Positions 17,577 to 50,085 of a stretch of DNA of 64,000 nucleotides are shown here, piece by piece (position 1 is the first letter of the stretch; each line of letters begins with the position of its first letter). A program made the position numbers and the translations under genes. Source of the stretch: Myxococcota bacterium. Lineage in GTDB: Bacteria > Myxococcota_A > UBA9160 > JAFDDA01. The DNA lies in NCBI GenBank assembly GCA_965228475.1, contig OZ245817.1, positions 2,752,001 to 2,816,000 of the forward strand. The letters run 5' to 3'. The notes beneath the pieces are model-generated. The model saw only the letters and a list, made by a program, of their open reading frames with translations. It was not told the DNA's origin and searched no databases.

Positions 17577-17694
17577 CCGGCAGCCCGCCGGCAAGACCTC
17601 GGAACACCGGCAGTTCGGGCCGCAAACCGCTGACACAACGGCCGGCCGGCCACCACTCATCTCCAGCCACCCGTCATGGTTGGAGGTTCACCCC

Positions 17695-18717
17695 TTGGAA
17701 CCCGTCGCCCGGCCGACCGTCAGCATCGTCACCTCGCTCTACAACAAGGCCAGCTACATCGCCGCAGCGGCCAAGAGCGTCCTGGCCCAGGACTTCGATT
17801 CCTTCGAGTGGGTGATCGTCGACGACGGTTCGACGGACGGCTCCGCAGATCGCCTGCCCGACGACCCGCGCATCCGCGTGATCCGCCAGGAGAACGCCGG
17901 CATGGCCGCGGCCGTGAACCGCGCCGTTGCCGAGGCCCGCGGCGAGTTCGTGACCTTCCTCGACGCCGACGACGCCCTCCTGCCCGGGAAGCTCTCGAAG
18001 CAGGTGGCGATCGCCCGGGCCCATCCCGACGCCGACTGGGTGCTCTCGGGCTTCCAGAGCCGCTCCGCCGACGGCGTTCGCACCCGCCTTCCGCTCGGCG
18101 ACGACGTCCCGGCCGGAACCGTGCGCGCCTTCGACGACGCCCACGTCGCCCTCGAGCTCGGCGGCCAGCGGCTCGATGCGCTCCTGCTCCGCCGCGAGGA
18201 CTTCGACGTCGTCGGCGGCCTGATCCACGAGGCCACCCCCTTCGACCACGCCCACTTCTTCGCCCGCCTCTTCCTCGCCCGCCCGCACTGCGTCGTGCAC
18301 CAGGGGGCGGTGAGTCTCTACGACCTCGAGGTTCCGGGAAGCCTCTACAAGCAGGCCATGAAGCGGGTCGAGGGCTGCCGGATGATCTCCGAGCTTCACC
18401 GCGCGCTCGCTCGCCGGTACCCCCACCACCGACGGTCCCTCCTGCGCCAGGCCGAGCGGAGCTTCTGCCAGTACGCGCGCGGCATGGCCCTGAACGGGCA
18501 TCGTGCGACCGCGCTGCTCGAACTCGGCCTGCGTTACCGGGGCGTGCGTCGGGCGCCGTTCCTCGCGGCCCTCGGACGGGTCCTGACGCCGGAGCTTCTC
18601 GCCGATGCGCTGAAGGCTTCGATGACCCTCCTCCGGGGCCTCTCGGTGGGCGAGCCGGCAGCCGCCCGCCCGATCCCGGCGACGGCGGCCGCGGCGCCCG
18701 CGCAGCTCGGCGCCTAG
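17695..18717 (+). CDS. Glycosyltransferase family 2
   Basis: Motifs VSIVTSLYN, IVDDGSTD and FLDADD; TTG start after GGAGG. Confidence 0.88.
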   Translation: MEPVARPTVSIVTSLYNKASYIAAAAKSVLAQDFDSFEWVIVDDGSTDGSADRLPDDPRIRVIRQENAGMAAAVNRAVAEARGEFVTFLDADDALLPGKLSKQVAIARAHPDADWVLSGFQSRSADGVRTRLPLGDDVPAGTVRAFDDAHVALELGGQRLDALLLRREDFDVVGGLIHEATPFDHAHFFARLFLARPHCVVHQGAVSLYDLEVPGSLYKQAMKRVEGCRMISELHRALARRYPHHRRSLLRQAERSFCQYARGMALNGHRATALLELGLRYRGVRRAPFLAALGRVLTPELLADALKASMTLLRGLSVGEPAAARPIPATAAAAPAQLGA

Positions 18718-18790
18718 CGCGCCCGCTTCGGGCCCGGCCCGCCGGAGTTCGTGTCGCCGGGCCTTCGCGCCGGCCCGCTAAGCTCCCGCC

Positions 18791-19852
18791 ATGGCGAACG
18801 ACCCCTCGCGAGACGCGGCCCTCGCGCGCGCCGAGACCCTCCCGGCCTCCGCCTACCGCGACGCCTCCGCCTTCGAGGCGGAGCGGCGCGAGGTCTTCGG
18901 CCGCTCCTGGCTACTCGCCGCCCACGCGGACGAGCTCGCGGAGCCCGGCGCCACCGTTGCGGAGCGCCTGGCCGGCTGGCCGATCTTCCTCCGGCGCGGA
19001 CGGGACGGCGTGCTGCGAGGCTTCCACGACGTCTGCCGCCACCGCGCCGGCCCGATCGTCGGCATGCCCGAAGGGGACGTCGCGAAGACCTGCACCGTCC
19101 CGAAGCTCCGCTGCCGGTACCACGGCTGGATCTACGGCGAGGACGGCGGGCTCGAGCGCACGCCGGACTTCGGCGCGGCCGAGGACTTCGAGCCGAGTGC
19201 GCTCGCCCTGGCCCCGCTCCGCGTCGCCTGCTGGCGCGGCTTCGTCTTCGTCTCCTTCGACGCGGAGGGCCCCGAACTCGCCGAATCGCTCGGGCGGCTC
19301 CCCGAGCTCACGGAGCGGCTCGACCTCGAGCGCTTCCGGTTCCACTCGCGCAGCGCGCACCGGCTCGCGTGCAACTGGAAGACCTACGTCGAGAACTACC
19401 TCGAGGGCTATCACATCCCCTACGTCCACCCGCGCCTGCACCGCGAGATCGACGTGAAGGGGTACGAGATCGAGGCGGGGCGAAGCGTCGTCACCCACCA
19501 TGCGCCGGCGCGCGCGCGCGTCGCGGAACCCGTCTACGACGGCCTCTGGGCGTGGCTCTTCCCGAACGTCGCCTTCAACGTCTACGGGGAGGGGCTCTCG
19601 GTCGAACGCATGGTGCCCGTCTCACCGAGCGAGATGCGCATCGAGTACCTCTTCCTGTTCGCCGACGGGGCCGACCCGGAGGCGGCCCTCGCCATGTGCG
19701 CCGAGGTCACGGACGAAGACCGCCGAATCTGCGAAGCCGTCCAGCGGAACCTCGAGGCCGGGGTCTACGACCGGGGACGTCTCTCGCCCCGCCACGAGGC
19801 GGGCGTCTTCTACTTCCAGTCCCGGTTGCGCGAAGCGCTCGCCCGCGACTGA
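18791..19852 (+). CDS. Rieske non-heme iron oxygenase alpha subunit (choline monooxygenase/CntA-like)
   Basis: Rieske ligands CRHR...CRYHGW; mononuclear Fe motif ENYLEGYHIPYVH...ED. Confidence 0.92.
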   Translation: MANDPSRDAALARAETLPASAYRDASAFEAERREVFGRSWLLAAHADELAEPGATVAERLAGWPIFLRRGRDGVLRGFHDVCRHRAGPIVGMPEGDVAKTCTVPKLRCRYHGWIYGEDGGLERTPDFGAAEDFEPSALALAPLRVACWRGFVFVSFDAEGPELAESLGRLPELTERLDLERFRFHSRSAHRLACNWKTYVENYLEGYHIPYVHPRLHREIDVKGYEIEAGRSVVTHHAPARARVAEPVYDGLWAWLFPNVAFNVYGEGLSVERMVPVSPSEMRIEYLFLFADGADPEAALAMCAEVTDEDRRICEAVQRNLEAGVYDRGRLSPRHEAGVFYFQSRLREALARD

Positions 19853-19916
19853 GGGCGAACGCGCCGGGCCCGCCCGCCGAGCCCGTGCGCCCGCCGGTTC
19901 GGCTACCGTCCGGGCC

Positions 19917-20711
19917 GTGACCGAACCCACCGACTTCCGAGAACGCTTCGGGCCCTGGGCCGTCGTGACCGGCGCCGCCCAGGGCGTGGGGCTCGCCTAC
20001 GCCGAGGAGGCGCTCACGCGGGGGCTTCGCGTCCTGCTCGTCGACCGCGACCCGAAGGTCGAAGACGTCGCCCACGGTCTCGGTGCCGAAGCCCGCGCCC
20101 TCGTCGCGGACCTCGCGGATCCGGCCTGGATCGATCGGCTGGCCGAAGCCACCGCCGGGCTCGAGGTCGGCCTGGCCGTCGCGAACGCGGGCGTGAGCTT
20201 CGTCGGACGCTTTCTCGACATGCCGGCGGCCCGCCGCGACGCGATCCTGCGCGTGAACTGCGACGCCACCGTGCACATGGCCGAGTGGGCGCTCCCGCCC
20301 ATGGTGGCGCGCGGGCGGGGCGCCTTCATCGTGACGAGTTCGGGGTCCGCCCTCGCCGGCACCGCGGGCGTCGCCCTCTACAGCGCGACCAAGGCCTTCG
20401 TCTTGAATCTGGCGGAAGCCCTCGGGTACGAACTCCGGGAGACCGGGGTCGTCACCCAGGCGGTCGTCGCGCCGAGCATGAGTACGCCCGCCTTCGGCGA
20501 AAGCGGCGCGGACCCCGAGCGCATGGTGACGCCGGCCGTCGACCCGCGCGACGTGGTCCGCGGCGCCCTCGACGCCCTGGGCGAGGGCACCTGCTGGCTC
20601 GCCGACCCCGGGCTCGAGTTCATGGCCGGCCTCGACCGGCGGAAGTCCGCCGATCTGATTTCCGCTGCAACGATGGGGATGTACCCGAAGGTCTTCGAGC
20701 AGGACTCGTAG
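19917..20711 (+). CDS. SDR family oxidoreductase
   Basis: Motifs WAVVTGAAQGVG, NAG and YSATK. Confidence 0.9.
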   Translation: MTEPTDFRERFGPWAVVTGAAQGVGLAYAEEALTRGLRVLLVDRDPKVEDVAHGLGAEARALVADLADPAWIDRLAEATAGLEVGLAVANAGVSFVGRFLDMPAARRDAILRVNCDATVHMAEWALPPMVARGRGAFIVTSSGSALAGTAGVALYSATKAFVLNLAEALGYELRETGVVTQAVVAPSMSTPAFGESGADPERMVTPAVDPRDVVRGALDALGEGTCWLADPGLEFMAGLDRRKSADLISAATMGMYPKVFEQDS

Positions 20712-20729
20712 GGCCCACGGCCCCGGCCT

Positions 20730-20780
20730 TCAGCGCCGCCGCGGCCCTCAGCGCCGCCGCGGCCCTCAGCGCCGCCGCGG
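20730..20780. repeat. 18-bp tandem repeat (about 2.8 copies of TCAGCGCCGCCGCGGCCC)
   Basis: Directly visible; the last copy contains the stop codon of the minus-strand methyltransferase. Confidence 0.9.
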
Positions 20781-21815
20781 CGCCAGGCACTGGTGGGTGA
20801 CGTACCACTCCCGGCCCTCGTCGAAGCCGAACAGCTCCGCACAGCCCATGAAGAAGAGCCGCCAGCGCCCGAGCCAGCGCCGCGCCTCCGGCCCGTAGGT
20901 CTCGCGGAAGACGGGCTCGAGGCGGGCCGCCGCCGCATCGAGACGGGCCAGCCAGGCGTTCGAGGTCTTCTCGTAGTGGCGCCCGTCGACGGACCAGCGC
21001 TCCTCGACGGCGAGGTGCTCGTCGAACCGCGAGAGCAGATCCTCGGAGGGCATCATCCCGCCGGTGAAGAAGTGCCGGGCCATCCAGTCGCTCTCGTCGC
21101 GAATCTCGTAGGGATAGGCCGAGCGCGCGTGACAGAAGTGGTGGACGAAGAGCCGCCCCTCGGGCTCGAGCCAGCCGGCGATGCGCTCGAGCAGGCGCGG
21201 CCAGTTCCGCATGTGCTCGAACATCTCGACCGAGACGATGCGGTCGAAGACGCCCGCGCCCCCGAACGTGTTCATGTCCGCAGTCAGGACCTCGACCTCG
21301 ACGCCCCGGCGCGCCGCCTCCTCGAGGATGTGCTCGCGCTGCGGCTTCGAGTTCGAGACCGCCGTGACGCGGCAGCCGGGCATCTTCTCGGCGCAATAGA
21401 GCGAGAAGGAGCCCCAGCCGCAGCCGAGGTCGAGCACCCGCATGCCGTCGGCGACGCCGGCGCGCTCGAGCGTGCGCGCGAGCATGGCTTCCTCGGCGGC
21501 CGCGAGATCGCCCTGCCCCGGCTCGAACCAGGAGCCGCTGTACTTCAGGCGCGGTCCGAGCACCTCGCGGAAGAAGGCCGGCGGCACCTCGTAGTGCTGG
21601 GCGTTGGCGTGGTCGGGCACGAGCGCGATCGGGCTCGCCGGGAGCGTCGCGACGAAGCGGTCCGTCTCGGCCGCGCCCTCGCGGGCCGCCCGCTCGGCGC
21701 GGCCGGCCACCATGTGGCGAACGCCGGCGCGCAGGGCCGCGTCCGGCAGCCAGCCGTGCTCGGCGGCGTGGATCAGGGAAGGAAGCAGCGGTCGGACGAG
21801 GCGGTCTGCGATCAC
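20766..21815 (-). CDS. SAM-dependent methyltransferase, cyclopropane-fatty-acyl-phospholipid synthase family
   Basis: Motifs ANAQHYEVP, LGPRLKYS, VLDLGCGWGS, SVEMFEHMRN and FFTGGMMPS. Confidence 0.9.
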   Translation of the reverse strand: MIADRLVRPLLPSLIHAAEHGWLPDAALRAGVRHMVAGRAERAAREGAAETDRFVATLPASPIALVPDHANAQHYEVPPAFFREVLGPRLKYSGSWFEPGQGDLAAAEEAMLARTLERAGVADGMRVLDLGCGWGSFSLYCAEKMPGCRVTAVSNSKPQREHILEEAARRGVEVEVLTADMNTFGGAGVFDRIVSVEMFEHMRNWPRLLERIAGWLEPEGRLFVHHFCHARSAYPYEIRDESDWMARHFFTGGMMPSEDLLSRFDEHLAVEERWSVDGRHYEKTSNAWLARLDAAAARLEPVFRETYGPEARRWLGRWRLFFMGCAELFGFDEGREWYVTHQCLAPRRR

Positions 21816-21865
21816 GGAGAACCCTCCGCTCCGTAGCAAAGCCCGTGCTGGCGGATTGGCAAGCG

Positions 21866-22265: not shown

Positions 22266-22880
22266 TCAGTGGGCCGCCGGCGCGGGCTCGAGCATCGACT
22301 CGAGGAACGCCCGGGTCTCGGCCGCGTCCCAGGGCACGGGGCCGCCGCCGTAGGCGACGATCCGCCCGGCGGCGTCGGCCACGAAGGCCGCCGGAATCCC
22401 GGTGATGCCGAGCGCCTGGAAGTTCGCCTTCTGCGAATCGAGGTACGGGCGGAGGTGGTGGAGCCCTCGGCCCGCGAGGTAGCGAGCCGGCACCTCGATG
22501 CCGCCGTCGTCGATCGAGAGCGCGACGACGGGCATGCGGCCCGCGAAGGCCGCCGCGAGACGGTCGAGCTTCGGCATCTCCTTCGCGCAGACGCCGCACC
22601 AGGTCGCCCAGAGCACGACCAGGACCGGCCGCCCCTGGAACTCGACGAGCCCCCGCTCGAGCACCGTCCCGTCGTCCTGGAGCTCTTCGAGGACGTAGCT
22701 CGGCAGCTCGGCGCCGGGCGGCACCGCGCGCAGCGGTTTCGGGGCGCGCGCGGAACCGGCGAAGCTCGCCGCGGCGAGGAAGCCGCCCACCACGACGAGG
22801 AGCGTGGCACTGCGGCGCCAGGGGAAGCGCTGGCGCGTGGGCGGGGGATCCGGCCTGGCGGTCGAGTGAGCGGAAGTCAT
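22266..22880 (-). CDS. TlpA/ResA-like thiol:disulfide oxidoreductase
   Basis: WATWCGVCAKEMP (CxxC), cis-Pro motif GIP, and an N-terminal anchor. Confidence 0.9.
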   Translation of the reverse strand: MTSAHSTARPDPPPTRQRFPWRRSATLLVVVGGFLAAASFAGSARAPKPLRAVPPGAELPSYVLEELQDDGTVLERGLVEFQGRPVLVVLWATWCGVCAKEMPKLDRLAAAFAGRMPVVALSIDDGGIEVPARYLAGRGLHHLRPYLDSQKANFQALGITGIPAAFVADAAGRIVAYGGGPVPWDAAETRAFLESMLEPAPAAH

Positions 22881-22935: not shown

Positions 22936-23745
22936 TCAGCCCCGGCCCGCGCCCTTCCCGCCGAGGGCCCCCTCGACGAAGGCGTGGCTCGTCAGCGCTT
23001 CGGCGAAGAACCCGTGGCTCCCGGCGTCGAGCAGCTCGCGCCCGGCGGCGACGACCGCCGCCTGGGCCGCCTTCGCGATCGCGCCGCCCGTGGAGATCCG
23101 CGTCACCCCGGCTTCGAAGAGCTCCGCGATCGACGGCCCGCCCGGCAGGATCAGGCCGTTCAACGGGAGGTCCACGGCGGCTCGGACGGAACGGAAGTCG
23201 TCGAGGCTCCGCAGCCCGGGCGCGTAGAGGACGTCGGCGCCCGCCTCCTGGTAGGCCTCGAGGCGCGCGATCGTGTCGGCCAGGTCCGGGTTGCCGCGGA
23301 TGTGGTTCTCGGCGCGCGCCGTCAGCACGAGCGGCGCGGCGTGCGCACGGTTCACCTCGACCGCCGCCCGGATGTGCTCGGCGGCGCGCTCGGGCTCGTA
23401 GAGTTCGCTGCCGCTCCAGTCTTCGATCGAGCATCCGGCGAGCCCGGTCTCGAGCGCGGCGCGGAGGGTCTCCGCCGCATCCTTGGCCTCGTCCCCGAAG
23501 CCGTGCTCGAGGTCCGCACTCACCGGGAGCGGCGTCGCGCCGACGATCTCCTCGGCGTGGCCGAGCGCCTCCTCCCGTGTCATGTCTCCGTCGAGCCGCC
23601 CGAGCGCGTTGGCGTAGCCGGAGCTCGTCGTCGCGAGCGCCGGGAAGCCGAGCGCGGCCAGGATCTTCGCGGAGCCGCGATCCCAGGGGTTCGGCATGAT
23701 GAAGGGGGCTTCGTGAAGGGCGCGGAAGACGTCTCGGGATTCCAT
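22936..23745 (-). CDS. Isocitrate lyase/PEP mutase family protein
   Basis: Motifs MPNPWD.GSAK, ATTSSG, PVSADLEHGFG, GCSIED, LTARAEN and AGADVLYAPG. Confidence 0.9.
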   Translation of the reverse strand: MESRDVFRALHEAPFIMPNPWDRGSAKILAALGFPALATTSSGYANALGRLDGDMTREEALGHAEEIVGATPLPVSADLEHGFGDEAKDAAETLRAALETGLAGCSIEDWSGSELYEPERAAEHIRAAVEVNRAHAAPLVLTARAENHIRGNPDLADTIARLEAYQEAGADVLYAPGLRSLDDFRSVRAAVDLPLNGLILPGGPSIAELFEAGVTRISTGGAIAKAAQAAVVAAGRELLDAGSHGFFAEALTSHAFVEGALGGKGAGRG

Positions 23746-23867: not shown

Positions 23868-24551
23868 CTACATGACCTCGTGCTTGCGAAAGGCGTCGAC
23901 CACGCTGCCGCCCGCCTCGATCTCCTCGCGCACCTTCTCCTCCCGGCGCGCCTTCGCGAGCGCGCGCTGGAGGATCTCCTCCTCCGCCTCGTGGGGAATG
24001 ATGCAGACGCCGTCGTCGTCGCCGAAGACGAGGTCGCCGGGCCGCACGCGCACGCCCCCCACCCGGATCGAGCAGCGGAAGTCGACCACGTTGTGGCGGC
24101 CCTGGAGGCCGTAGGCGTAGGCGCCCCGCGCGAAGACCGGGATGTCGACGGCCCGGATGCCGCGGACGTCGCGGACGTTGGCGTTCAGCACGATCCCCGC
24201 CGCGCCGCGCTTCGCGATGCGCAGGGTCAGCATGTCGCCGAGGCGCGCCGCGTAGGTCGGGCAACCCGTCGCGATGTAGACCTCCCCCGGCGCGAGGTCC
24301 TCGATCGACTCGAACATCAGTCCGAAGGGCTTGGCATCGAAGCGGCCGGGGGCGCCGTGGGGCAAGGGCGGATCGTCCTGCACGGGCATGGCGCGGCCGA
24401 TCATCACACGGCCGCCGGTGAGGGTTCCGATCTCGTGGGGCAGCATCGGCTTGCGGAAGCCGAGCTGTTCCATGACGTCGCTCACCGGGCAGGTCGAGAG
24501 CTCGGCCCGCATGAGCGCGAAGAGCTCCTCGTCCGTCTTCGGGTGGGTCAC
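23868..24551 (-). CDS. RraA family protein (HMG/CHA aldolase-like)
   Basis: Motifs SDVMEQLG, GDMLT..RGAAGIV..VRD and VRPGDLVFGDDDGVCIIP. Confidence 0.9.
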   Translation of the reverse strand: MTHPKTDEELFALMRAELSTCPVSDVMEQLGFRKPMLPHEIGTLTGGRVMIGRAMPVQDDPPLPHGAPGRFDAKPFGLMFESIEDLAPGEVYIATGCPTYAARLGDMLTLRIAKRGAAGIVLNANVRDVRGIRAVDIPVFARGAYAYGLQGRHNVVDFRCSIRVGGVRVRPGDLVFGDDDGVCIIPHEAEEEILQRALAKARREEKVREEIEAGGSVVDAFRKHEVM

Positions 24552-24554
24552 GCG

Positions 24555-25424
24555 CTAGGCCGCCGGCGTCATGCGCAGCGGCTTGCGCACGCGGTTGTGG
24601 CCGTGGCGATCCTCGCCGGCCACGAGCACCGAGGCGTAGCGGTCGAGATCGAGCTCCTCGCCGAAGTGCTGAAAGGAATCCCGCCCGGGATACACCTGCA
24701 CCTCCGCGGGCACGAAGCGCGTCGCCCAGCCGAAGCGGACCGAGGACTTGCTCGTGTTCGGATGGGAGCCGTGCAGGCAGCGCGACGTGAAGACGAAGAA
24801 CTGCCCGGCCTTCACCTCCATGTGGACCGTGCCGTCCTCGTCCGCCTCCCAGTTCGGATCGAGCTTCAGGCGGTCCCAGTCGTAGCCGTAGAAGCCGACG
24901 CCGGCGTCGGGCTCGAAGGGGATGTTGCGCTTCTCGTCGAAGTACCACGTGCGGTGCGTGCCGGGCTTCAGTTTGAAGCAGCCGTTCTCGCGCGTGGCGT
25001 CCGTCATCGCGATCCAGGCCGTGAGTTCCCAGGGCTCCGCGCGCCCGGGGGGCGGCACGAGCTTCTCGGTGCCCTCGAACTCGACGAAGCTCTGGGCCTG
25101 GTGCCAGTCCGTGCCGGCGTTGCCCGGGTACTTCGGGAACCACTCGGTGCGCCAGCACAGGACGTCGGGGCCGAGGATGCTCGTCAGCCGGTCCACCAGG
25201 CGCGGGTGGCTGATCATCTCGTCGAGGGCCGGGACGTCGAGATGACGGTCGTAGTTCAGCCGGCTCTTCGGGAACGGCGCGTCGTCCTTGCGCAGAAGGT
25301 CGACCCGGAGCCGGGACCAGATCCGCTTCATCTCCTCCGGCTCGTAGAGGGTGAAGGGGCCGGCGAAGCCGTTCGCGTGGAAGGCCTCCTTCTCGGCGTC
25401 GGAAAGGTGGAATCGCTCACTCAT
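24555..25424 (-). CDS. Non-heme Fe(II)/2-oxoglutarate halogenase (SyrB2/BarB/CmaB-type chlorinating enzyme)
   Basis: NYDRHLD and CWRTEWFPKYPGNAGTDWHQA match SyrB2-family motifs. The H-Q-A triad (Ala in place of Asp/Glu) is at 25095-25103, and the distal His is in LHGSHPN. Confidence 0.88.
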   Translation of the reverse strand: MSERFHLSDAEKEAFHANGFAGPFTLYEPEEMKRIWSRLRVDLLRKDDAPFPKSRLNYDRHLDVPALDEMISHPRLVDRLTSILGPDVLCWRTEWFPKYPGNAGTDWHQAQSFVEFEGTEKLVPPPGRAEPWELTAWIAMTDATRENGCFKLKPGTHRTWYFDEKRNIPFEPDAGVGFYGYDWDRLKLDPNWEADEDGTVHMEVKAGQFFVFTSRCLHGSHPNTSKSSVRFGWATRFVPAEVQVYPGRDSFQHFGEELDLDRYASVLVAGEDRHGHNRVRKPLRMTPAA

Positions 25425-27243
25425 GGGAGGCTCCCGTTTCGCCCTGCTGATCGAGGATCGCCCGCGCGATCCCCTCGGCCGACGAGGTTTCTTCTTCGAA
25501 GAAGAGCCGCGGGTCGAGTACGACGCCGGCCTCCGCTTCCAACTGTTCGAGCACCTCGACGAGGTTCAGCGAGTTGCCGCCGACGTCGAGAAAGAGCCCC
25601 TCCGGGCCGATCCCCTCGACCCCGATCACCCGCTGGTAGATCCCGAGGACCGTCGCCGTCGTCCGGCGGAGCTCGGCCTCGGCGGCTTCGTCGCCGCCCC
25701 CGACGCGGCCCTCGAGGATCACGGTGAGGAGCTTGCGGTCCGTCTTGCCCGAAGAGAGCTGGGGGAACTCCCCGAGGATCTCGATGTGGCGGGGGATCAT
25801 GTAGGCCGGCAGCTCCTCGGCGAGCCGCTGCGCGATCCGTTCGCGCGGGACCTGGTGCCCCGGGTCGAGCAGGACGCCCGCCGCGAGGATCTTGCCTTCG
25901 TAGGCGGACTCGAGCGCCACGACCTCGGCCGCATGGACGTGGGGAACGCTGCAGATCACGCGCTGGATCTCGTTCGTGTGAACCCGGTAGCCGCCGAGGT
26001 TGACCTCGGCGTCGCGCCGTCCCTGGTAGAGCAGGCTCCCGTCCTCGAGCCAGGTGCAGACGTCTCCGGTGCGGTAGCAGCGCACGCCCTCGAACTCGAC
26101 GAGACGTGCGGCGGTCTCCTCGGGGAGCTTCCAGTAGCCGTCCATGACCTGGCTCCCGGCGAGCAGCAGCTCGCCCGGACGGCCCGCGGTCTCGATGCGC
26201 TGCCCCTCGTCATCCACGAGGAAGGCCTCGACGTGGCGGAAGGGCTTCCCGATCGGATAGAGCGCCTCGCGCCCCGGCTCGCGCTCGCGGATCGGGTGGG
26301 CGGTGGCGGCGCAGGTCACCTCGGTCGGACCGTAGGCGTTCAGCACGGTCACGTGCTCGTTCTTGGCGAGCCAGCGCTGCACGGTCTTGACGTCGGGAAC
26401 GTCGGTCCCGGTGAGGATCGTCCGGAGATGCGGGAGGGGCGCGGAATCGAAGACCCGGGCCTGGGCGACGAGCCCGAGCATCCGGCCCCAGGCCGAGAAA
26501 TGGGTCACGTCGTTCGCGCGGATCGTCTCGAACAGGAGGTCCGGGAAGACGACGTCGTCGTGGAGGTGGACCGTCGCGCCCTCCGAGAGAGGGAAGAGCA
26601 TGTCCATGAGGAACACGTCGAAGTGGAGCGGCGAGAAGCTCGCGCAGACGGCGCCCTCGCGGACGTCGTAGAACTCGCGCGTTCCCTCGAAGAAGTCGGG
26701 GAGACTGCCGTGGCGGATCACGACGCCCTTGGGCCGGCCCGTCGACCCGGAGGTGTAGATGCAGTAGGCCGGCGCCGCCGGATCGAAGGAGCCGTCGTCG
26801 GCCGGGCGCCCTGCGGAGGCCGGCGCCTCCTGCGCCCGCTCGAGCACCGCCGCGAGGTCTGCCTCGGCCAGGATCGGCGCCTCCGCGGGGAGCGCCTCGG
26901 CCACGCGCTCCCGCAGGCTCTCCTCGGTCACGACCACCGCGGGGGCGATCTCCTCGAGGATGTAGGCGAGGCGGGCCTCCGGCATGCGCGGGTCGAGGGG
27001 CACGTGGACCGCCCCGGCTTCGAAGGTGCCCAGGATCGCCGCCACGGTGACCGCCCGCCGGTTCGAGAGCAGGACGACCCGGTCGCCGTGCCGGCAGCCG
27101 AGCGCGAGGAGCCGTTCGGCGAAGGCGGCACTGAAGCGGTCGAGCGTGGCGTAGTCGATGCGGACGTTTCCGTCCGCGAGGGCACAGCGTTCGGGATGCG
27201 CCTCGGCCGTACTCTGGATCGACTGCAGCAGGGGGGTCCGCAT
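25417..27243 (-). CDS. Stand-alone NRPS adenylation-thiolation (A-T) didomain protein
   Basis: Motifs YTSGSTGRPKG (A3), FDV (A4), NAYGPTE (A5), YRTGD (A7) and SSGKTDR (A10); PCP motif FLDVGGNSL. Confidence 0.92.
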   Translation of the reverse strand: MRTPLLQSIQSTAEAHPERCALADGNVRIDYATLDRFSAAFAERLLALGCRHGDRVVLLSNRRAVTVAAILGTFEAGAVHVPLDPRMPEARLAYILEEIAPAVVVTEESLRERVAEALPAEAPILAEADLAAVLERAQEAPASAGRPADDGSFDPAAPAYCIYTSGSTGRPKGVVIRHGSLPDFFEGTREFYDVREGAVCASFSPLHFDVFLMDMLFPLSEGATVHLHDDVVFPDLLFETIRANDVTHFSAWGRMLGLVAQARVFDSAPLPHLRTILTGTDVPDVKTVQRWLAKNEHVTVLNAYGPTEVTCAATAHPIREREPGREALYPIGKPFRHVEAFLVDDEGQRIETAGRPGELLLAGSQVMDGYWKLPEETAARLVEFEGVRCYRTGDVCTWLEDGSLLYQGRRDAEVNLGGYRVHTNEIQRVICSVPHVHAAEVVALESAYEGKILAAGVLLDPGHQVPRERIAQRLAEELPAYMIPRHIEILGEFPQLSSGKTDRKLLTVILEGRVGGGDEAAEAELRRTTATVLGIYQRVIGVEGIGPEGLFLDVGGNSLNLVEVLEQLEAEAGVVLDPRLFFEEETSSAEGIARAILDQQGETGASHE

Positions 27244-27442
27244 CGGCTCGTGCCCTCGTCGTGGCGTCGGCCCAAAGTACCACCGGCGTCGGGCGCGCGG
27301 CAATCGCGACGCCGCGTGACGGCCCTGCGCGAGGCCCGCAACTCGGACGCAGAAAACACCGCCCGGACTCCCGTTCCCGGGCCGCGGCGCAGGGGCGCGC
27401 TAGCCTCGCGCCCGCGACGCCATCCATGGAGGCTGCGCCCAC

Positions 27443-27907
27443 GTGGAACGCCCGATCACGGGATTCGACCTCGACGAAGCGGGTCACTGGCGCGCCCAGC
27501 TCTCGTGCGGCCACCGCCAGCACGTCCGTCACCACCCGCCGTTCTCCGACCGCGGCTGGGTGCTGACCGAGGCCGGGCGCGGGTCGCGCCTCGCGACGCC
27601 GCTCGATTGCCCGAACTGCGACCGGAGTGAGCTTCCAGAAGAAGCCTCGGCCTACCGGGAGACGAAGCTCTTCACGCCCGAATCCGTTCCGAAGGGGCTC
27701 CTCGCCGAGCACTCGACGAAGGCCGGGGTCTGGGGCCGGATCCACGTCCGGGCGGGCACCGTCGAGTACTTCGTGGCCGGCGAGAACCCCCGCCACGAGA
27801 CCCTCACGCCGGGACGGCCGGGCGTGATCTGCCCGGAGGTCGAGCACCGGGTGGCACCGGGCGCTTCGAGCGAGTTCTTCGTCGAATTCCTGCGCGTCGC
27901 GGAGTAG
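27443..27907 (+). CDS. DUF3565-DUF1971 (TehB/YeaR-like cupin) fusion protein
   Basis: N-terminal GFDLDEAGHW.AQLSCGH.QHVRH.PP..CPNCD; C-terminal P.GLLAEHSTKAGVWG..H.V; GGAGG RBS. Confidence 0.85.
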   Translation: MERPITGFDLDEAGHWRAQLSCGHRQHVRHHPPFSDRGWVLTEAGRGSRLATPLDCPNCDRSELPEEASAYRETKLFTPESVPKGLLAEHSTKAGVWGRIHVRAGTVEYFVAGENPRHETLTPGRPGVICPEVEHRVAPGASSEFFVEFLRVAE

Positions 27908-29493: not shown

Positions 29494-32400
29494 ATGACGC
29501 TCCAGGTCGCCCTGCGCCACGAGACGCACTACCGCTACGACCGGCCGGTCGTGCTCGGGCCCCAGACGATCCGGCTGCGCCCGGCCCCGCACTGCCGGAC
29601 CCCGATTCGCGCCTACTCGCTTCGCGTCACGCCGGAGGCGCACTTCCTGAACTGGCAGCAGGATCCGCAGGGGAACTTCCTCGCCCGGGTCGTCTTCCCG
29701 GATCCGACCCGCGAGTTCCGCGTCGACGTCGATCTCGTCGCGGAGATGTCGGTGATCAACCCGTTCGACTTTTTCCTCGAAGAAGACGCGCGGGAGGTTC
29801 CCTTCGTCTACGAGCCGGCGCTCGCCAAGGAGCTCGAGCCGTTTCTCGTGCCCGAACCGGCCGGCCCCGCGCTGCGCGAGTGGCTGACCGGCGTATCGCG
29901 CGCGGCGACCCCCACCATCGACTTCCTCGTGGGCCTGAACCAGCGGCTCGAGCAGGAGATCCAGTACGTGATCCGCCTCGAGCCCGGCGTGCAGACGCCG
30001 GAGGAGACGCTCGGCCTGGCTCGCGGCTCCTGCCGGGACAGCGCCTGGCTGCTGGTCCAGATCCTCCGCCAGCTCGGCATCGCTGCGCGCTTCGCCTCGG
30101 GCTACCTGATCCAGCTGAAGCCGGACACCGAGAGCCTCGACGGGCCGAGCGGTGCCGAGTCCGACTTCACCGACCTGCACGCCTGGACCGAGGCATACCT
30201 GCCGGGCGCGGGCTGGGTCGGCCTCGACCCGACCTCGGGCCTGCTCGCGGGAGAGGGACACATTCCGCTGGCGTGCAGCCCGAGCCCGCAGTCGGCCGCG
30301 CCCGTGAGCGGCCTCGTCGGCACGGCGGAGGTCGAATTCGGCCATCGCATGTCGGTGGAGCGGGTGCGCGAGTCGCCGCGGGTCACCCTGCCCTACGACG
30401 AGGCCACGTGGCAGGCGATCGACGGCCTGGGCGAGGCCGTCGACCGTCAGCTCCGCGGGGACGATACGCGGCTCACCATGGGCGGCGAACCGACCTTCGT
30501 GAGCATCGACGACTTCGAAGCCCCCGAGTGGAACACCGATGCCCAGGGGCCGACCAAGCGCGCGCTCGCGGAGGACCTGATCCGCCGGCTGCGCGAGCGC
30601 TTCGCTCCGAGCGGCATCCTCCACTACGGGCAGGGCAAGTGGTACCCGGGCGAGCCACTCCCTCGCTGGTCCTTCTCGCTGCTCTGGCGGGAAGACGACG
30701 TGCCGCTCTGGCGGGATGCCTCGCGCATCGCGCGGGAGGCCCGGGATCACGCCCCGGATGCCGTCGCCGCCGAGCGCTTCCTGCGCGCCCTCGCCGAGCG
30801 GCTCGACGTGGACCCGGCGCATGCGGTGCCGGCCTTCGAGGACGCGCTCGCCAGCCTGGCCGCCGAAGCGCGGCTCCCGGAGAACGTCGACGCCCTGCAT
30901 CCACAGGCCGAGGAGCTCGAAACGGGTGAGGGCCGCGCCCGGCTGGCGCGGACGCTCTCGCGCGGCCTCGGCAACCCGCGCGGGTTCGTCCTCCCGGTGC
31001 AGGCCTGGAACGCCAAGAACGGCCGCCGCCGCTGGTACTCGGAGAAGTGGAGCTTCCGGCGCGGCTCGCTGTTCCTGGTCGAAGGCGATTCACCGCTCGG
31101 ATTCCGGCTTCCCCTCGACTCCCTCCCCTTCCTCGACCCGCTCGAGTACCCGCACGTCGTTCCGGTCGACCCGACGCTCCCGCGAGGCCCGCTCGGCCGG
31201 CCCTCGCCGCGCCGCCAGCCCTTCCTTTCCCGCGAGCGGGACGAACGCGCGGCGGGCGCTTCCGCGTACGCGGGTGAGATCGCGAGCACGGCCGTCCGGA
31301 CGGCGGTCTCCGTCGAGCCGAGGGACGGGAGACTCTGCGTGTTCCTCCCGCCCCTCGAGACCGCGGACGACTTCGTGGACCTCGTCGCAGCCATCGAAGA
31401 CGTCTGCGCCGAACAGGACACGGCCGTCCACCTCGAGGGCTATCGCCCGCCGGCGGACCCGCGCCTGCGAATGCTCCAGGTCTCGCCGGACCCGGGCGTG
31501 ATCGAGGTGAACGTCCAGCCGAGCTCGAGCTGGAGGGAACTCGTCGACGTCACGACCACGGTCTACGAGGAAGCGCGGGCGGCCCGCCTCGGCACCGAGA
31601 AGTTCATGCTCGACGGCCGCCACACGGGCACCGGGGGCGGGAACCACTTCGTGCTCGGCGGCGCGACACCGGCGGACAGCCCCTTCCTTCGGCGGCCGGA
31701 CCTGCTGCGCAGCCTCGTCGCGTTCTGGCTGAACCACCCTTCGCTCTCGTACCTGTTCTCGGGCCTGTTCATTGGCCCGACCAGCCAGGCACCCCGCGTC
31801 GACGAAGCGCGCCAGGATGCCCTGTACGAGCTCGAACTCGCCTTCCGGCAGATTCCGGAGCGCGGCGAGGGGGAGTGCCCGCCGTGGCTCGTCGATCGCA
31901 TCCTCCGCAACCTGCTCGTCGATACGACGGGCAACACGCACCGCGCGGAGTTCTGCATCGACAAGCTCTACTCGCCGGACTCGGCGAGCGGACGCCAGGG
32001 GCTGGTCGAGCTGCGGGCCTTCGAGATGCCGCCCCACCCGCGCATGAGTCTCGTCCAGCAGCTTCTGCTGCGATCCCTCGTGGCCCGCTTCTGGCGCGAG
32101 CCGTACCGGGCACCGCTCGCGCGGCACGGCACCGACCTCCACGACCGCTTCCTGCTGCCGCACCACGTCTGGACCGACTTCCGCTCGGTGCTCGCAGAAC
32201 TCCGGGAGGCCGGGTTCGCCTTCGAGGACGCCTGGTTCGGCCCGCACTTCGAGTTCCGCTTCCCGCACGTCGGAACCCTCGAGACGGCCGGCTGCGAGAT
32301 CGAGATCCGCCAGGCCCTCGAACCCTGGCACGTCCTCGGCGAGGAGGGCGCGGTCGGCGGGACCGCGCGCTTCGTCGATTCCTCCCTCGAACGCGTCCAG

Positions 32401-32826
32401 GTCAAGGCCCGCGGGCTGACGGGCGGCCGCTATGCGGTCGGCTGCAACGGCGTGCGCCTCCCCCTCCAGCCGACGGGCGTGTCCGGAGAGTTCGTGGCCG
32501 GCGTCCGCTATCGCGCATGGCAACCGGCCCGCTGCCTCCACCCGACCATCCCGGTCCACGCGCCGCTCACGTTCGACCTCCTCGATCTCTGGACGGGACG
32601 GGCCGTGGCCGGCGGCCGCTACCACGTGGCGCACCCCGGCGGAGTGAACCACGAAACCTTTCCCGTCAATGCCTACGAAGCCGAGGGGCGCCGGCTCGCC
32701 CGCTTCGCCGCGTTCGGGCACACCCCCGGCCCGCTCGAGCTCGTGGAACCCCCTGCGGCCACCGAGCATCCCGCTACTCTCGACCTGCGAGCCTGCTCCG
32801 GGCCGTGGGGGAACCGATCGGCATGA
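29494..32826 (+). CDS. Transglutaminase family protein with C-terminal DUF2126 (putative amidoligase) domain
   Basis: N-terminal H.T.YRYDRPV.LGPQ.IRLRPAPH; triad GSCRD/DLHAW/GLDPT; DUF2126 motifs LTMGGEPTF, PDPGVIEVN, GTGGGNH and ELRAFEMPPH. Confidence 0.92.
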   Translation: MTLQVALRHETHYRYDRPVVLGPQTIRLRPAPHCRTPIRAYSLRVTPEAHFLNWQQDPQGNFLARVVFPDPTREFRVDVDLVAEMSVINPFDFFLEEDAREVPFVYEPALAKELEPFLVPEPAGPALREWLTGVSRAATPTIDFLVGLNQRLEQEIQYVIRLEPGVQTPEETLGLARGSCRDSAWLLVQILRQLGIAARFASGYLIQLKPDTESLDGPSGAESDFTDLHAWTEAYLPGAGWVGLDPTSGLLAGEGHIPLACSPSPQSAAPVSGLVGTAEVEFGHRMSVERVRESPRVTLPYDEATWQAIDGLGEAVDRQLRGDDTRLTMGGEPTFVSIDDFEAPEWNTDAQGPTKRALAEDLIRRLRERFAPSGILHYGQGKWYPGEPLPRWSFSLLWREDDVPLWRDASRIAREARDHAPDAVAAERFLRALAERLDVDPAHAVPAFEDALASLAAEARLPENVDALHPQAEELETGEGRARLARTLSRGLGNPRGFVLPVQAWNAKNGRRRWYSEKWSFRRGSLFLVEGDSPLGFRLPLDSLPFLDPLEYPHVVPVDPTLPRGPLGRPSPRRQPFLSRERDERAAGASAYAGEIASTAVRTAVSVEPRDGRLCVFLPPLETADDFVDLVAAIEDVCAEQDTAVHLEGYRPPADPRLRMLQVSPDPGVIEVNVQPSSSWRELVDVTTTVYEEARAARLGTEKFMLDGRHTGTGGGNHFVLGGATPADSPFLRRPDLLRSLVAFWLNHPSLSYLFSGLFIGPTSQAPRVDEARQDALYELELAFRQIPERGEGECPPWLVDRILRNLLVDTTGNTHRAEFCIDKLYSPDSASGRQGLVELRAFEMPPHPRMSLVQQLLLRSLVARFWREPYRAPLARHGTDLHDRFLLPHHVWTDFRSVLAELREAGFAFEDAWFGPHFEFRFPHVGTLETAGCEIEIRQALEPWHVLGEEGAVGGTARFVDSSLERVQVKARGLTGGRYAVGCNGVRLPLQPTGVSGEFVAGVRYRAWQPARCLHPTIPVHAPLTFDLLDLWTGRAVAGGRYHVAHPGGVNHETFPVNAYEAEGRRLARFAAFGHTPGPLELVEPPAATEHPATLDLRACSGPWGNRSA

Positions 32827-34640
32827 GCGAGCTCGTCGCCCTTTGCTTCGACGCCGACGCCTCTCCGCGCGTCGGCTTCTCCAAGACCCGGGACGCCCAT
32901 CCGATGGACGGCGAACGCATCCACGGCTGGGGCGTCGGCTGGTATCCGGCGAGCGAGCGCGGCGCGACCGTCCTCAAGGACCCGGGCACCGAGACCCGGG
33001 ACGACGTCGGCACGGCGCTCGGCGGATGGGAACGCTTCCGGTCGACGCTCTTCCTCTGCCACCTGCGCGGGCACGATCGGCGCCAGTCCCAGCAGGACCT
33101 GCAGCCCTTCGTGCGCAGCTACGCGGGCCGTCAATGGATCTTCGCCCACGACGGCGACCTCACCCACGGCTGGCAGGAGCGCCTGCCGCTCCCCGACGAC
33201 CCGTCCTTCGAACCGCTCGGGCGGACGGACAGCGAGCACGCCTTCTGCTGGTTCTTGAGCCGGCTCCACCAGAGCCGCGCCCGTTCCCTGGCGGACGTCG
33301 ACGCGGCGGCGCTCGACGCGTGGCTCGGCGAGCTGAACGCCCAGGGCGAACTCAACCTGATCCTGTCCGACGGGGACATGCTGCTCGTCCACCGCGATCG
33401 GGTCGCCACCGACGCCCTCTACTGGACGCGCCTCATTCCCCCGCACGCCGGCCTCTCGCTGCGCTCCCTGGCCGTGGAGATCGACCTGAACGCCCCGCAG
33501 GATCCCCACCGGACGGCGCTCGTCTTCTCGAGCCGGCCGCTCTCCGAGGGCGCGTGGCGCCCCCTGGCCCCGGGACAGTGGATGTTGGCGCGGCGGGGCT
33601 CCGTCACCCACGACAGCGACCCGAGTGCCTCCGTCGAAGTCCTGACCGATCCCGCGACGCGGATGTCGGGCTCGCCTCCGGCCCAGGCGGAGGCCGGACA
33701 CCAGCAGGCCGGCGCCGAAGCCGCTCCGGCGATCGCGGCGCCCGCCTCGGCGCCGCCCTTCCTTCCCCAGCGCGACGAGCGGACGCTCGAAGTGGTCCAG
33801 GAGACCGTCTACCACTACCAGGAGCCGGTCGAACGCAGCTCCCACCGCATCCTCCTGAAGCCGGCGCAGGACGGCCTGCAAACTCTCGAAGCGTTCGAGT
33901 TCGACGTCTCCCCGGCGGGCACCACGGTCGAGTACGAAGACGTCTTCGGAAACTCCGCCTACGACGTCCAGATCAACTCACCCTACACCGAGCTGCGCAT
34001 CGCGAGCCGGGCGCGCGTTCGCGTGCAGTCCCCCGGCATCCTCGAAGCGCGTGCGCGCCGCGACACCATCCCGCTGGTCTGGATGCCCTCGCATCGCCAG
34101 ATGCTCCAGGCGTATCTGCTGCCGATGGAGCTCCCGGAAACCCAGCTCGAGGAGCTCTCCCGCTTCGCGATGAGCTTCGTCGAGCGAAACGACTTCGACC
34201 TCGTGAGCGTCCTGCTCGACATGAACGAGACGATCTACCGGGATTTCTCCTACGTCTCCGGCTCCACCTCGATCCACAGCACGCCCTTCGACGTCTACCA
34301 ATCCCGCGAAGGCGTCTGCCAGGACTTCGCGAACCTGATGATCTGCCTTGCTCGGCTCCTGAACGTCCCCGCGCGGTACCGGATGGGATACCTCTTCACG
34401 GGTGCCGACTACGAGAACAAGATCCAGTCCGAAGCGTCCCACGCGTGGCTCGAGCTCTACCTTCCGCGGCACGGGTGGCACGGCTTCGACCCCACCAACG
34501 CCCGTCAGATCGGGAGCGACCACGTGCGGGTCGCCGTCGGGCGCAACTACCGCGACGCCACCCCGACCACGGGGACCATCTACCGCGGTGGCGGCACGGA
34601 GACCCTGACGGTGAACGTGCAGGTCTCGGAGGTCGGCTAG
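32823..34640 (+). CDS. Fusion of class II glutamine amidotransferase-like (YafJ/EgtC) domain and transglutaminase
   Basis: ATGA overlap with the upstream gene; N-terminal HGWGVGWY, FAHDG and GRTDSEHAFCW; C-terminal EDVFGN, GVCQDFA, ASHAW and GFDPTN. Confidence 0.88.
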   Translation: MSELVALCFDADASPRVGFSKTRDAHPMDGERIHGWGVGWYPASERGATVLKDPGTETRDDVGTALGGWERFRSTLFLCHLRGHDRRQSQQDLQPFVRSYAGRQWIFAHDGDLTHGWQERLPLPDDPSFEPLGRTDSEHAFCWFLSRLHQSRARSLADVDAAALDAWLGELNAQGELNLILSDGDMLLVHRDRVATDALYWTRLIPPHAGLSLRSLAVEIDLNAPQDPHRTALVFSSRPLSEGAWRPLAPGQWMLARRGSVTHDSDPSASVEVLTDPATRMSGSPPAQAEAGHQQAGAEAAPAIAAPASAPPFLPQRDERTLEVVQETVYHYQEPVERSSHRILLKPAQDGLQTLEAFEFDVSPAGTTVEYEDVFGNSAYDVQINSPYTELRIASRARVRVQSPGILEARARRDTIPLVWMPSHRQMLQAYLLPMELPETQLEELSRFAMSFVERNDFDLVSVLLDMNETIYRDFSYVSGSTSIHSTPFDVYQSREGVCQDFANLMICLARLLNVPARYRMGYLFTGADYENKIQSEASHAWLELYLPRHGWHGFDPTNARQIGSDHVRVAVGRNYRDATPTTGTIYRGGGTETLTVNVQVSEVG

Positions 34641-34671
34641 CCGCCCCTCCCCCGAGCGCGCCCGCCGGCGC

Positions 34672-35685
34672 CTAGCCCTGCTTCTGGGTCTGCGTCTGCA
34701 CCTGGTCGTGCGTCCAGCTGGCCGTCAAGAGCACGGGGTCGAAGAACTCGACGCGCACCGTCTCGCAGATCTCCGCCGTCGCGTTCACCAGGTGGGTCAC
34801 GACCTCGTGGAGCCCGCGCTCGAGCACGGAGTCGACGTCGTGCGCCTGGAGCTCGTCGAGCGTCTTGGCCACGATCGCCTCGCTCGCGGAACCGCGCGTA
34901 TCCCCGCGCCCCGGGCGGACGAGGCCCAGGAAGTTCCGGGCCCGCAGCAGGTTGTGGATCACCGAGCGCGGGAAGGTCGGATCGAACAGGAGGAAGTCCG
35001 CGACGGCGCGGCCTCCGAGAATGCGATCCTCCCGCTTGACGAAGGTCTCGGCGCCCGAGCAGAAGCGCAGGGTCGCGATCCAGTGCGCGGCCTCGAGCGG
35101 CGACTCCTCGCCCGGGCGCGTCGGCCCGATGCTGTGATGCTTGATGTCGAGCAGACGCGCCGTCTGCCCCGCCCGCTCGAGCGAGGTTCCGAGCCGCATG
35201 AACTCGAACGGGTCTTCGTGGAGCATCGTGGCATGGGCGATGCCGTGGAACAGCCAGCACTGGTTGCGCAGCCGCAGATAGAAGGCCTGCCGGTCCGACC
35301 GGTAGAGCTTGCGCGCAGCCGGCTCGGCGAGCCAGACCCAGAGATCGTTCAGCGCCTCCCACATCTCGAGCGTGATGGTCTCGCGGATCGTGCGGGCGTT
35401 CTCCCGGGCGAAGCGGAGCGAGGAAGCGAGCGAGGCCGGGTTCTCCTCGTCCCAGGTCAGGTACTCCTGGACCGCTTCCGCATCGTCGAGCTTGCCCGCG
35501 TCGATCCGGCGGACGAAGTCCTCCTCCTGACCGGTCACGATCACGAGGGGCCGCCACCGTTCGGCATCGGCCATCGCGACGTCGAGCTGGAAGGAGAGGT
35601 TCACGCTGAGCATCCGTGCGAGCACTTCGACGCGCTCGACGTAGCGGTTCAGCCAGAAGCAGCTCTCGGCCACGCGCGAAATCAC
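34672..35685 (-). CDS. Alpha-E domain protein (DUF403)
   Basis: Motifs [44 protein letters not shown] and FPRSV. Confidence 0.92.
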
Positions 35686-37142: not shown

Positions 37143-37258
37143 TCGGGTCGAGGGGTCCTCCGGAGGAAGCCGGAGTCTAGAACGGGTTCGGACCGTTTGC
37201 AGACCCCCGGCCGCTCGCGAGGTGGACGCTGCAGCGTCTCGGGATAGCCTGCAACCCG

Positions 37259-50045: not shown

Positions 50046-50085
50046 GCCCTTCCAGGCCGAGACAGCCCCGAGAGGAGAGAACGCC

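Follow-up and report, generated by a model that had tools for sequence, protein, structure and literature searches.

In a stretch of 64,000 nucleotides from a Myxococcota bacterium (assembly GCA_965228475.1, contig OZ245817.1, positions 2,752,001 to 2,816,000; hereafter the window), three coupled genes encoded an adenylation-thiolation (A-T) didomain, a predicted aliphatic halogenase dependent on Fe(II) and 2-oxoglutarate (2OG), and an RraA-like protein. Judging from sequence comparison across genomes and metagenomes, the RraA-like gene is genuinely conserved as a partner of the halogenase, and the family to which the locus belongs is a chlorination cassette resembling the barA-D genes of barbamide biosynthesis with an obligatory RraA-like member. 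The best reading of the window's own locus was a horizontally acquired and reduced member of this widespread, uncharacterised cluster family. The fuller proposal, in which the reduced and acquired cassette with its RraA-like enzyme forms a pathway to a branched-chain amino-acid antimetabolite, had in our estimate an even chance of being correct.

Conservation of the halogenase and RraA-like gene pair

A genome scan with the halogenase recovered 33 loci, and the nine closest (61-71% identical, all from Pseudomonadota) each had a downstream RraA homologue with 64-71% identity. When the RraA alignment was used instead, 80 loci were found. Nine of the ten at 65% identity or above adjoined a halogenase and the tenth was interrupted by a contig end, and none of the 70 loci at 42-49% identity was located beside a halogenase of the window's clade; in one of these 70, a PhyH protein with 26% identity was encoded at a distance of about 7 kb. 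More loci of the same layout came from a metagenome scan and one further genome scan.

A maximum-likelihood tree of 69 halogenase rows was built by a quick search, with support from the Shimodaira-Hasegawa-like approximate likelihood ratio test (SH-aLRT) only. One clade (SH-aLRT 98) contained all 19 RraA-linked rows together with four rows that were cut at contig ends. Namely, the RraA gene was present in 19 of 19 informative rows inside this clade and in 0 of 31 such rows elsewhere in the tree. The window halogenase was the first branch within the RraA-linked clade, and the group of BarB1 and BarB2 was neighbouring. A preliminary description of this DNA, made from the nucleotide letters alone, had named as refuting a lack of conservation of the RraA gene beside homologous A-T/halogenase pairs; the pairing withstood this test.

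The clade spanned at least 18 genome loci from Pseudomonadota and Acidobacteriota as well as metagenome contigs. By their database names, further proteins of the clade come from Breoghania and several species of Burkholderia, so cultured hosts exist; Breoghania corrubedonensis DSM 23382 (L003) is one that has the full cluster. The relatives nearest to the window's proteins (P0124, P0005 and P0006) were known from contigs of 2.7-4.1 kb, and the top match of the metagenome scan was only 70% identical. Among the sequencing datasets listed with matching DNA, none was of RNA, two contained identical DNA as contigs and may be its source, and a marine metagenome had pieces with identities near 99% and near 86%.

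Two further observations concerned the surroundings of this clade. In Arenibaculum (L043), a second RraA copy was found beside genes for a luciferase-like monooxygenase (LLM) and a ketopantoate-reductase-like protein (KPR), with the contig ending upstream. Additionally, a 31-row sister halogenase clade (52-56% identical to the window's) occurred in Acidobacteriota, Myxococcota and Actinomycetota (L009-L023, L026, L029 and metagenome loci L123-L142). It had a conserved layout of its own, in which an A gene was located about 6.5 kb upstream, a T gene just before the halogenase and another A gene roughly 5 kb downstream; the specificity code was DVMTMGGVIK. This clade appeared to be another uncharacterised cluster family.

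The clusters of the RraA-linked relatives had a typical gene order. An A gene (about 528 aa) was followed by a separate T gene (about 95 aa), the halogenase, a thioesterase (TE1) and the RraA-like gene; then came a second thioesterase, TE2, and in many relatives an IlvE-type transaminase (388 bits, cut-off 279; placed before TE2) or, after TE2, an isopropylmalate synthase or an NtaA/DmoA-type flavin mononucleotide (FMN) monooxygenase. In some clusters, genes resembling ketopantoate reductase and ThiF came last. The TE1 gene lay between the halogenase and RraA genes in 17 loci and was absent in L039, L040, L115, L121 and L195, where RraA directly followed the halogenase. TE2, a type II thioesterase resembling BarC, was present in all 21 distinct relatives with sequence beyond RraA, and most carried two thioesterases. 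Two metagenome-assembled genomes, a Burkholderia (L028) and a Pseudomonadota (L042), had a DmpF/DmpG-type pair of acetaldehyde dehydrogenase and 4-hydroxy-2-oxovalerate aldolase in place of the isopropylmalate synthase, and L042 additionally had a cupin, a flavin reductase, an ATP-grasp protein and a LuxR-type gene upstream.

These clusters were related to the barbamide genes of Moorena producens, where BarA (T), BarB1/BarB2, BarC (type II thioesterase) and BarD (A) were all homologous to the family. With the Sulfurifustis cassette (L004) as query, identity to the Moorena proteins was 45-46% for T, 65-66% for the halogenase, 49% for the thioesterase and 50-51% for A; TE2 of the relatives likewise shared 49% identity with the thioesterase that the Moorena barbamide loci encode. 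In contrast to the RraA-linked clusters, the barbamide genes were embedded in an assembly line of polyketide synthase (PKS) and nonribosomal peptide synthetase (NRPS) genes without an RraA-like gene. CytC1-4 (armentomycin) and Thr1-4 (4-chlorothreonine), which yield a free chlorinated amino acid, resembled the relatives in having free-standing A, T, halogenase and thioesterase proteins and no condensation domain, and their cassettes are not known to include an RraA-like enzyme, a leucyl-tRNA synthetase (LeuRS) or an isopropylmalate synthase. The new element was the obligatory RraA-like partner, the barbamide-type chlorination cassette was already familiar, and the window represented an unusually reduced form.

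The encoded proteins and the probable substrate

Since the window had about 71% G+C, long spurious open reading frames (ORFs) were common and genes were chosen by codon-position GC. Third-position GC was 0.91 for the A-T ORF, 0.93 for the halogenase and 0.96 for the RraA-like gene, which at such overall composition identified the three ORFs as real genes. The ORF listing agreed with the preliminary description in that the A-T and halogenase genes shared 8 nt (25417-25424) and the halogenase and RraA-like genes were separated by 3 nt (24552-24554). The A-T ORF extended over 25417..27303, with an in-frame TTG upstream of the ATG; the ATG was favoured as the start from the alignment of the relatives' A proteins, which began there, and the TTG was less likely. 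Pfam domains were, in order, AMP-binding, AMP-binding_C and PP-binding; PhyH; and RraA-like (PF03737).

Table 1. Genes of the operon region and the adjoining upstream spacer (positions in the window)
Feature	Position	Strand	Details
A-T didomain	25417..27243	-	608 aa from ATG 27243; 628 aa from TTG 27303
SyrB2/CytC3/BarB-type Fe(II)/2-oxoglutarate aliphatic halogenase (predicted)	24555..25424	-	289 aa; H108-Q-A110, H218
Long-form RraA-like protein	23868..24551	-	227 aa, GTG start; PF03737 104 bits
Phosphoenolpyruvate (PEP)-mutase/isocitrate-lyase superfamily gene	22936..23745	-	269 aa; PF13714 233 bits
Intergenic region between the operon and the divergent DUF3565/DUF1971 gene (27443-27907)	27244..27442	.	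presumed promoter site

The assignment of the second gene as a carrier-dependent Fe(II)/2OG aliphatic halogenase was sound by family membership, with chlorination itself predicted. Its best solved match was SyrB2 (2fct; E 1.9e-76 over the full length), followed by CytC3 (3gja; E 1e-73), and it scored 399.7 bits on the NCBIfam model TIGR01762 'chlorinating enzyme', where the cut-off is 226.3. The motif GTDWHQAQSF placed H108-Q-A110 on the WHQAD stretch of SyrB2. This bore out the earlier view that H-Q-A in place of H-x-D/E marked a SyrB2-type enzyme, as did the identity of 61-63% to BarB1/BarB2 (Moorena loci L007 and L008), the nearest characterised relatives; the protein P0220 carried the name BarB1 from its source. 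Carrier and adenylating enzyme were encoded together with the halogenase. A plain hydroxylase of the PhyH family was highly improbable: activity is not readable from sequence, and halogenases of the SyrB2/BarB family hydroxylate to some degree on non-native substrates, but here the carboxylate ligand was replaced by Ala, H108, A110 and H218 were invariant in a 12-sequence family alignment, and both the wide margin over the curated cut-off and the identity to BarB1/B2 spoke for a halogenase. The closest database relative was P0124 (83% identical), and a 10-residue loop was deleted in these two proteins and present in the other ten aligned sequences. As a separate observation, P0228 of Vibrio mediterranei (373 aa) was a natural carrier-halogenase fusion within the same halogenase family, with PP-binding at the N-terminus followed by PhyH.

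The A-T protein scored 264.7 bits on AMP-binding and 348 bits on the amino acid adenylation domain TIGR01733 (cut-off 317). It contained the motifs YTSGSTGRPKG, YRTGD and GK(T)DR and the carrier serine motif GGNSL. Its identity was 62-66% to the relatives' stand-alone A proteins and 48-49% to Moorena BarD, and it alone among 96 homologues at E<=1e-100 had PP-binding fused to the A domain. The specificity code, whose ten positions were anchored by hand on conserved motifs with GrsA numbering, was DVMSLGACAK in the window and nine distinct relatives and DVMSLGACGK in two more. The BarD code in the two Moorena loci was DAIALGGCAK or DAMALGGCAK, differing from the window's at three to four of the ten positions, where the window had bulkier residues (V instead of A, S instead of A, and A instead of G). 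According to a 2021 halogenase review (PMC8407142), leucine is the amino acid that BarD loads, and BarB1/B2 place three chlorine atoms on one of its methyl groups while it is bound to BarA. From the BarD-like code, the substrate of the window's A domain was probably a branched-chain amino acid, leucine or a slightly smaller analogue. Leucine was the leading candidate. The code differences all enlarged pocket residues, and from the code a smaller amino acid, such as valine or another with a branched or linear side chain, seemed as plausible as leucine.

The RraA-like protein was most likely a metal-dependent 2-oxo-acid enzyme, with its chemistry deduced from fold and alignment. The AlphaFold model (predicted local distance difference test, pLDDT, 90.8) was closer to the long forms 3k4i, 3noj and 5x15 (TMq 0.76-0.83; 0.77 for 3noj) than to the 160-aa RraA regulators (about 0.53). 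Residues D106, R127 and D128 aligned with D102, R123 and D124 of the 4-hydroxy-4-methyl-2-oxoglutarate/4-carboxy-4-hydroxy-2-oxoadipate (HMG/CHA) aldolase 3noj, which we take to serve metal binding and enolate stabilisation; among 30 homologues, R127 was invariant and D128 was replaced in four. The protein shared the long-form fold and this D/R/D set with the HMG/CHA aldolase (LigK/PcmE) at about 24% identity, and their contexts differed, namely aromatic degradation for the aldolase and a halogenation cassette here. It scored below every curated NCBIfam cut-off, including those of the LigK/PcmE aldolase TIGR02798 (75.5 bits, cut-off 304.5) and NF006731 (83.2 bits, cut-off 179). The identity of an RNase E regulator was considered and rejected, because the score on NF006875 was 44.1 bits against a cut-off of 136, the protein was too long (227 aa against about 160 aa) and its fold was nearer to the enzymatic long forms. 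The nearest homologues were P0005 (82% identical) and P0006 (78%). The sister group (about 45% identical; the loci at 42-49%) was located in sugar-acid (2-keto-acid) clusters with an enolase-superfamily dehydratase, a 2-keto-3-deoxy-6-phosphogluconate (KDPG) aldolase, a UxuA-like dehydratase, a short-chain dehydrogenase/reductase (SDR) and a sugar transporter.

A reduced locus and its proposed pathway

The locus was isolated in its host lineage. Among the 31 genomes of the host and its relatives, the three-gene run occurred in this genome only, and the RraA clade was not found in 40 genomes of the same order (E<=1e-20) or in 400 genomes of the phylum (E<=1e-65). The DNA at 23868-27243 had no match in an assembly of the same genus, which was 89% complete. 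Third-position GC of the three genes equalled that of host genes, which suggested that the acquisition was not recent or that the donor had a similar composition. The relatives' assemblies were too fragmented to show the borders of an island.

The locus was also smaller than the clusters of its relatives. Domain scans covered 45 window ORFs, a subset of all window ORFs picked by codon-position GC, and detected neither a thioesterase (PF00975) nor a condensation domain (PF00668) in them. The earlier statement that the locus had no thioesterase or condensation partner therefore held for the scanned ORFs of the window; as to the thioesterase, it failed for the system, since all 21 relatives with sequence beyond RraA had one. 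This indicated that the system was a barABCD-like cassette with RraA and that the window contained a reduced form of it. In comparison to barbamide (halogenase 61-63% and A domain 48-49% identical, with a related BarD code), the window had a single halogenase, a fused A-T protein and no BarC homologue. It likewise lacked the thioesterase of the CytC1-4 and Thr1-4 cassettes, and CytC1 was a more distant A domain (E 1.1e-47).

For the pathway we propose the following steps. The A domain would activate a branched-chain amino acid and load it onto the fused T domain, as the domains and motifs suggest, with the T domain presumably primed by the single Sfp-type phosphopantetheinyl transferase (PPTase) that the genome encoded. 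The halogenase, by its family and its His-x-Ala ligand set, would then chlorinate the tethered amino acid at an unactivated carbon of its side chain, probably in a terminal methyl group as BarB1/B2 do, with the number of chlorine atoms left free. Release of the thioester, the weakest step, might be performed here by some hydrolase or by spontaneous hydrolysis, where the relatives would use the BarC-like thioesterase. After transamination, the RraA-like protein may hold the chlorinated 2-oxo acid via Mg2+ and allow enolate chemistry at C3. Three outcomes would fit the fold, and we set no order among them: the C3 carbanion could displace the C5 chloride to form a cyclopropane, chloride could be eliminated, or a C-C bond could be made or broken as in an aldol reaction. 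Cryptic halogenation followed by C-C cleavage, as first suggested from the DNA letters, was thus possible.

It was likely that the end product was a leucine antimetabolite, either chlorinated or derived from a chlorinated intermediate, because relatives had a spare LeuRS as well as an isopropylmalate synthase that lacked the feedback domain, and a divergent second LeuRS was encoded in this genome too. Five alphaproteobacterial genomes carried a second LeuRS gene beside the A gene; in four of them the housekeeping LeuRS scored 943-1027 bits and the cluster-linked copy 555-650. The relatives' isopropylmalate synthase (430 aa; NF002086, 608 bits against a cut-off of 532) covered positions 3-384 of the 516 profile positions and had no LeuA_dimer, the C-terminal regulatory part. 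It is known that leucine analogues select feedback-insensitive isopropylmalate synthase. Both genes looked like self-resistance genes, and a producer of a toxic analogue of leucine would need them. Moreover, the genome that contains the window was the only one of the 31 with two full-length LeuRS genes (1083 and 626 bits), as the two matches in one relative (G001) were halves of a single gene. The second copy (G000:C1:315990-318488; 833 aa, 626 bits on TIGR00396) kept its HIGH and KMSKS motifs and was flanked by divergent genes for a GNAT acetyltransferase and an alpha/beta hydrolase.

A number of observations weighed against the proposed pathway. A tblastn search of the complete 5.0-Mb genome with TE1 and TE2 gave no match at E<=1e-3, and PF00975 scored above its cut-off in the genome only inside a PKS at 2.10 Mb, 680 kb from the three genes; with no cluster-type thioesterase found in the genome, release of the product was unexplained. 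By the same kind of search, KPR and ThiF partners gave nothing above 45 bits and the FMN monooxygenase gave a weak partial match only. The second LeuRS was 2.46 Mb from the three genes and about equidistant (34-37% identity) from the housekeeping and cluster-linked enzymes, and an 11-row LeuRS tree gave only three groups, with the G000 copy on a long branch of 1.52 and no shared origin shown. The genome's 396-aa isopropylmalate synthase was rejected as a self-resistance gene, because orthologues at 64-74% identity were present in 11 of the 30 relatives that lacked the three genes. The manual anchoring of the specificity code and the smaller substrates that it allowed pointed the same way. No chemistry of RraA-like proteins on halogenated substrates was found in the accessible full-text literature, and we know of no RraA-like protein that acts on such substrates.

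The missing thioesterase could also mean that the three genes were a decaying remnant that had lost the thioesterases, synthase and monooxygenase and released no product. The window was indeed the sole locus without a BarC-like thioesterase against 21 of 21 relatives, none was found elsewhere in the genome, and the clade was isolated in the host lineage. However, all three frames were intact (608, 289 and 227 aa), the checked catalytic and carrier motifs and the tight coupling were kept, and the fully host-adapted third-position GC implied long residence under selection. The 289-aa halogenase form also belonged to a separate sublineage (P0124 at 83%, with RraA proteins P0005 at 82% and P0006 at 78%), and the A-T fusion resembled a retained rearrangement. 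The intact frames, the host-like third-position GC and the Sfp-type PPTase were signs that the genes still function, and decay was in our view an unlikely explanation.

An operon thioesterase would not be needed if the A-T protein was an in-trans loading module for the N-terminal condensation (C) domain of the genome's only NRPS-PKS (G000:C1:2092043-2103616). This system consisted of C-A-T, with the A domain interrupted by an LLM domain, then KS-AT-KR-DH-T-TE and the Sfp-type PPTase, and as it opened with a C domain it would need an upstream donor. That the window's A-T protein was the only fused form among the 96 homologues agreed with such a role, as did the precedent of syringomycin, where the SyrB1 A-T didomain lies beside the SyrB2 halogenase as in the window and both feed an NRPS via the SyrC shuttle. 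However, unlike in that system, neither a SyrC/CmaE-type shuttle nor a nearby NRPS was found at the window, and the NRPS-PKS was about 680 kb distant. Its homologues occurred in two of 20 relatives without the three genes, where the match started at residue ~410 and left out the N-terminal C domain. For a C domain in this position, a lipid-starter role is the more common one. Since in-trans loading also left the RraA-like protein without a role, we considered it improbable.

With about the same low probability, the RraA-like protein might act on the tethered chloro-aminoacyl thioester, as CmaC and KtzA do, forming a ring or releasing the product so that a thioesterase would be dispensable. CmaC and KtzA are also follow-up enzymes encoded beside a carrier-dependent halogenase, and displacement of chloride by a carbanion was one reading of the RraA-like protein as well; their folds, however, are unrelated to RraA, they act on the thioester alpha-carbon, and no sign of ring formation was seen here. 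RraA directly followed the halogenase in the window (3-nt gap) and in the five relatives without TE1. In known cryptic-halogenation pathways the follow-up enzyme adjoins the halogenase, which the review (PMC8407142) echoed. Against action on the carrier, the fold relatives that were characterised or could be interpreted from context act on free 2-oxo acids or proteins and none on carrier thioesters, a thioesterase gene separated the halogenase and RraA genes in most relatives (17 loci), and TE2 was kept in every relative.

Building on the proposed route through a free 2-oxo acid, one could go further and suppose that the halogenase-linked RraA-like proteins are a new class of enzymes that finish cryptic chlorination. 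The 2-oxo acid would be bound by Mg2+, the C3 enolate would expel chloride, and transamination would give an amino acid with a cyclopropyl or vinyl group. Such a product would mimic leucine and target LeuRS and isopropylmalate synthase. We regarded this extension as rather doubtful. If true, it would account for the spare LeuRS and the feedback-domain-less synthase in the clusters, and the window would represent the minimal catalytic core of the pathway.

Neighbouring genes and significance

The list of three genes in the preliminary description was incomplete, as it left out a co-directional gene of the PEP-mutase/isocitrate-lyase superfamily, 122 nt downstream of the RraA-like gene. This gene was spotted by a third-position GC of 0.9-0.98 in its frame, which was that of a 740-aa stop-to-stop ORF overlapping the RraA-like and halogenase genes. 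The top solved structure for its product was 4lsb, an unnamed 'lyase/mutase'. No terminator-like site was seen in the scan between this gene and the RraA-like gene, and it was possibly a fourth member of the operon. Synteny did not establish such membership: a homologue in the same-genus genome (55% identical) had another gene context, and none was found in any relative's cluster locus.

Upstream of the operon, a scan for sigma-70-type promoters found no site in 27244..27442, which is uninformative for the host organism. On the minus strand, a terminator-like hairpin with seven pairs (six of them G-C) and a T-rich tail was present at 27361-27382, some 120 nt ahead of the A-T start. Two terminator-like sites were observed in the operon region against 1.8 expected; the hairpin may have arisen by chance or be part of a leader.

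The run at 17284-21839, next to the operon, contained lipid- or glycan-type genes (a GT2 glycosyltransferase, a Rieske oxygenase, an SDR and a cyclopropane-fatty-acid-synthase-like methyltransferase), and parts of it had matches, with 69-80% DNA identity, in assemblies from the same genus and the same family. A redoxin gene was located at 22266-22880. On the other side, a transglutaminase-related block (29494-37433) encoded a DUF2126 protein with transglutaminase domains (1110 aa), a fusion of class-II glutamine amidotransferase and transglutaminase, and a circularly permuted ATP-grasp protein; it was kept in the order-level relatives G006 and G002. At 49975-52182 on the plus strand, a 735-aa protein combined HTTM with the lumenal domain of vitamin-K-dependent gamma-carboxylase, and a GDSL lipase gene came after it.

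The combination of a halogenase with an RraA-like gene had not been recognised from the sequence at first, and no description of it was found in the full-text literature, with subscription-only papers outside the search. The 2021 review (PMC8407142) contained neither 'aldolase' nor 'Burkholderia'.

Only a few carrier-dependent Fe/2OG halogenases are known, and every one of them has brought unusual chemistry to light, such as trichloromethyl groups, cyclopropanes and alkynes. The present analysis defined a whole halogenase clade that was always tied to an enzyme of the RraA fold, a fold for which no role in natural-product biosynthesis was found in the literature searched. The self-resistance-like genes pointed to a leucine antimetabolite, which would make both product and target directly testable, and the small size of the locus (three or four genes) made it a convenient start for in vitro reconstitution.

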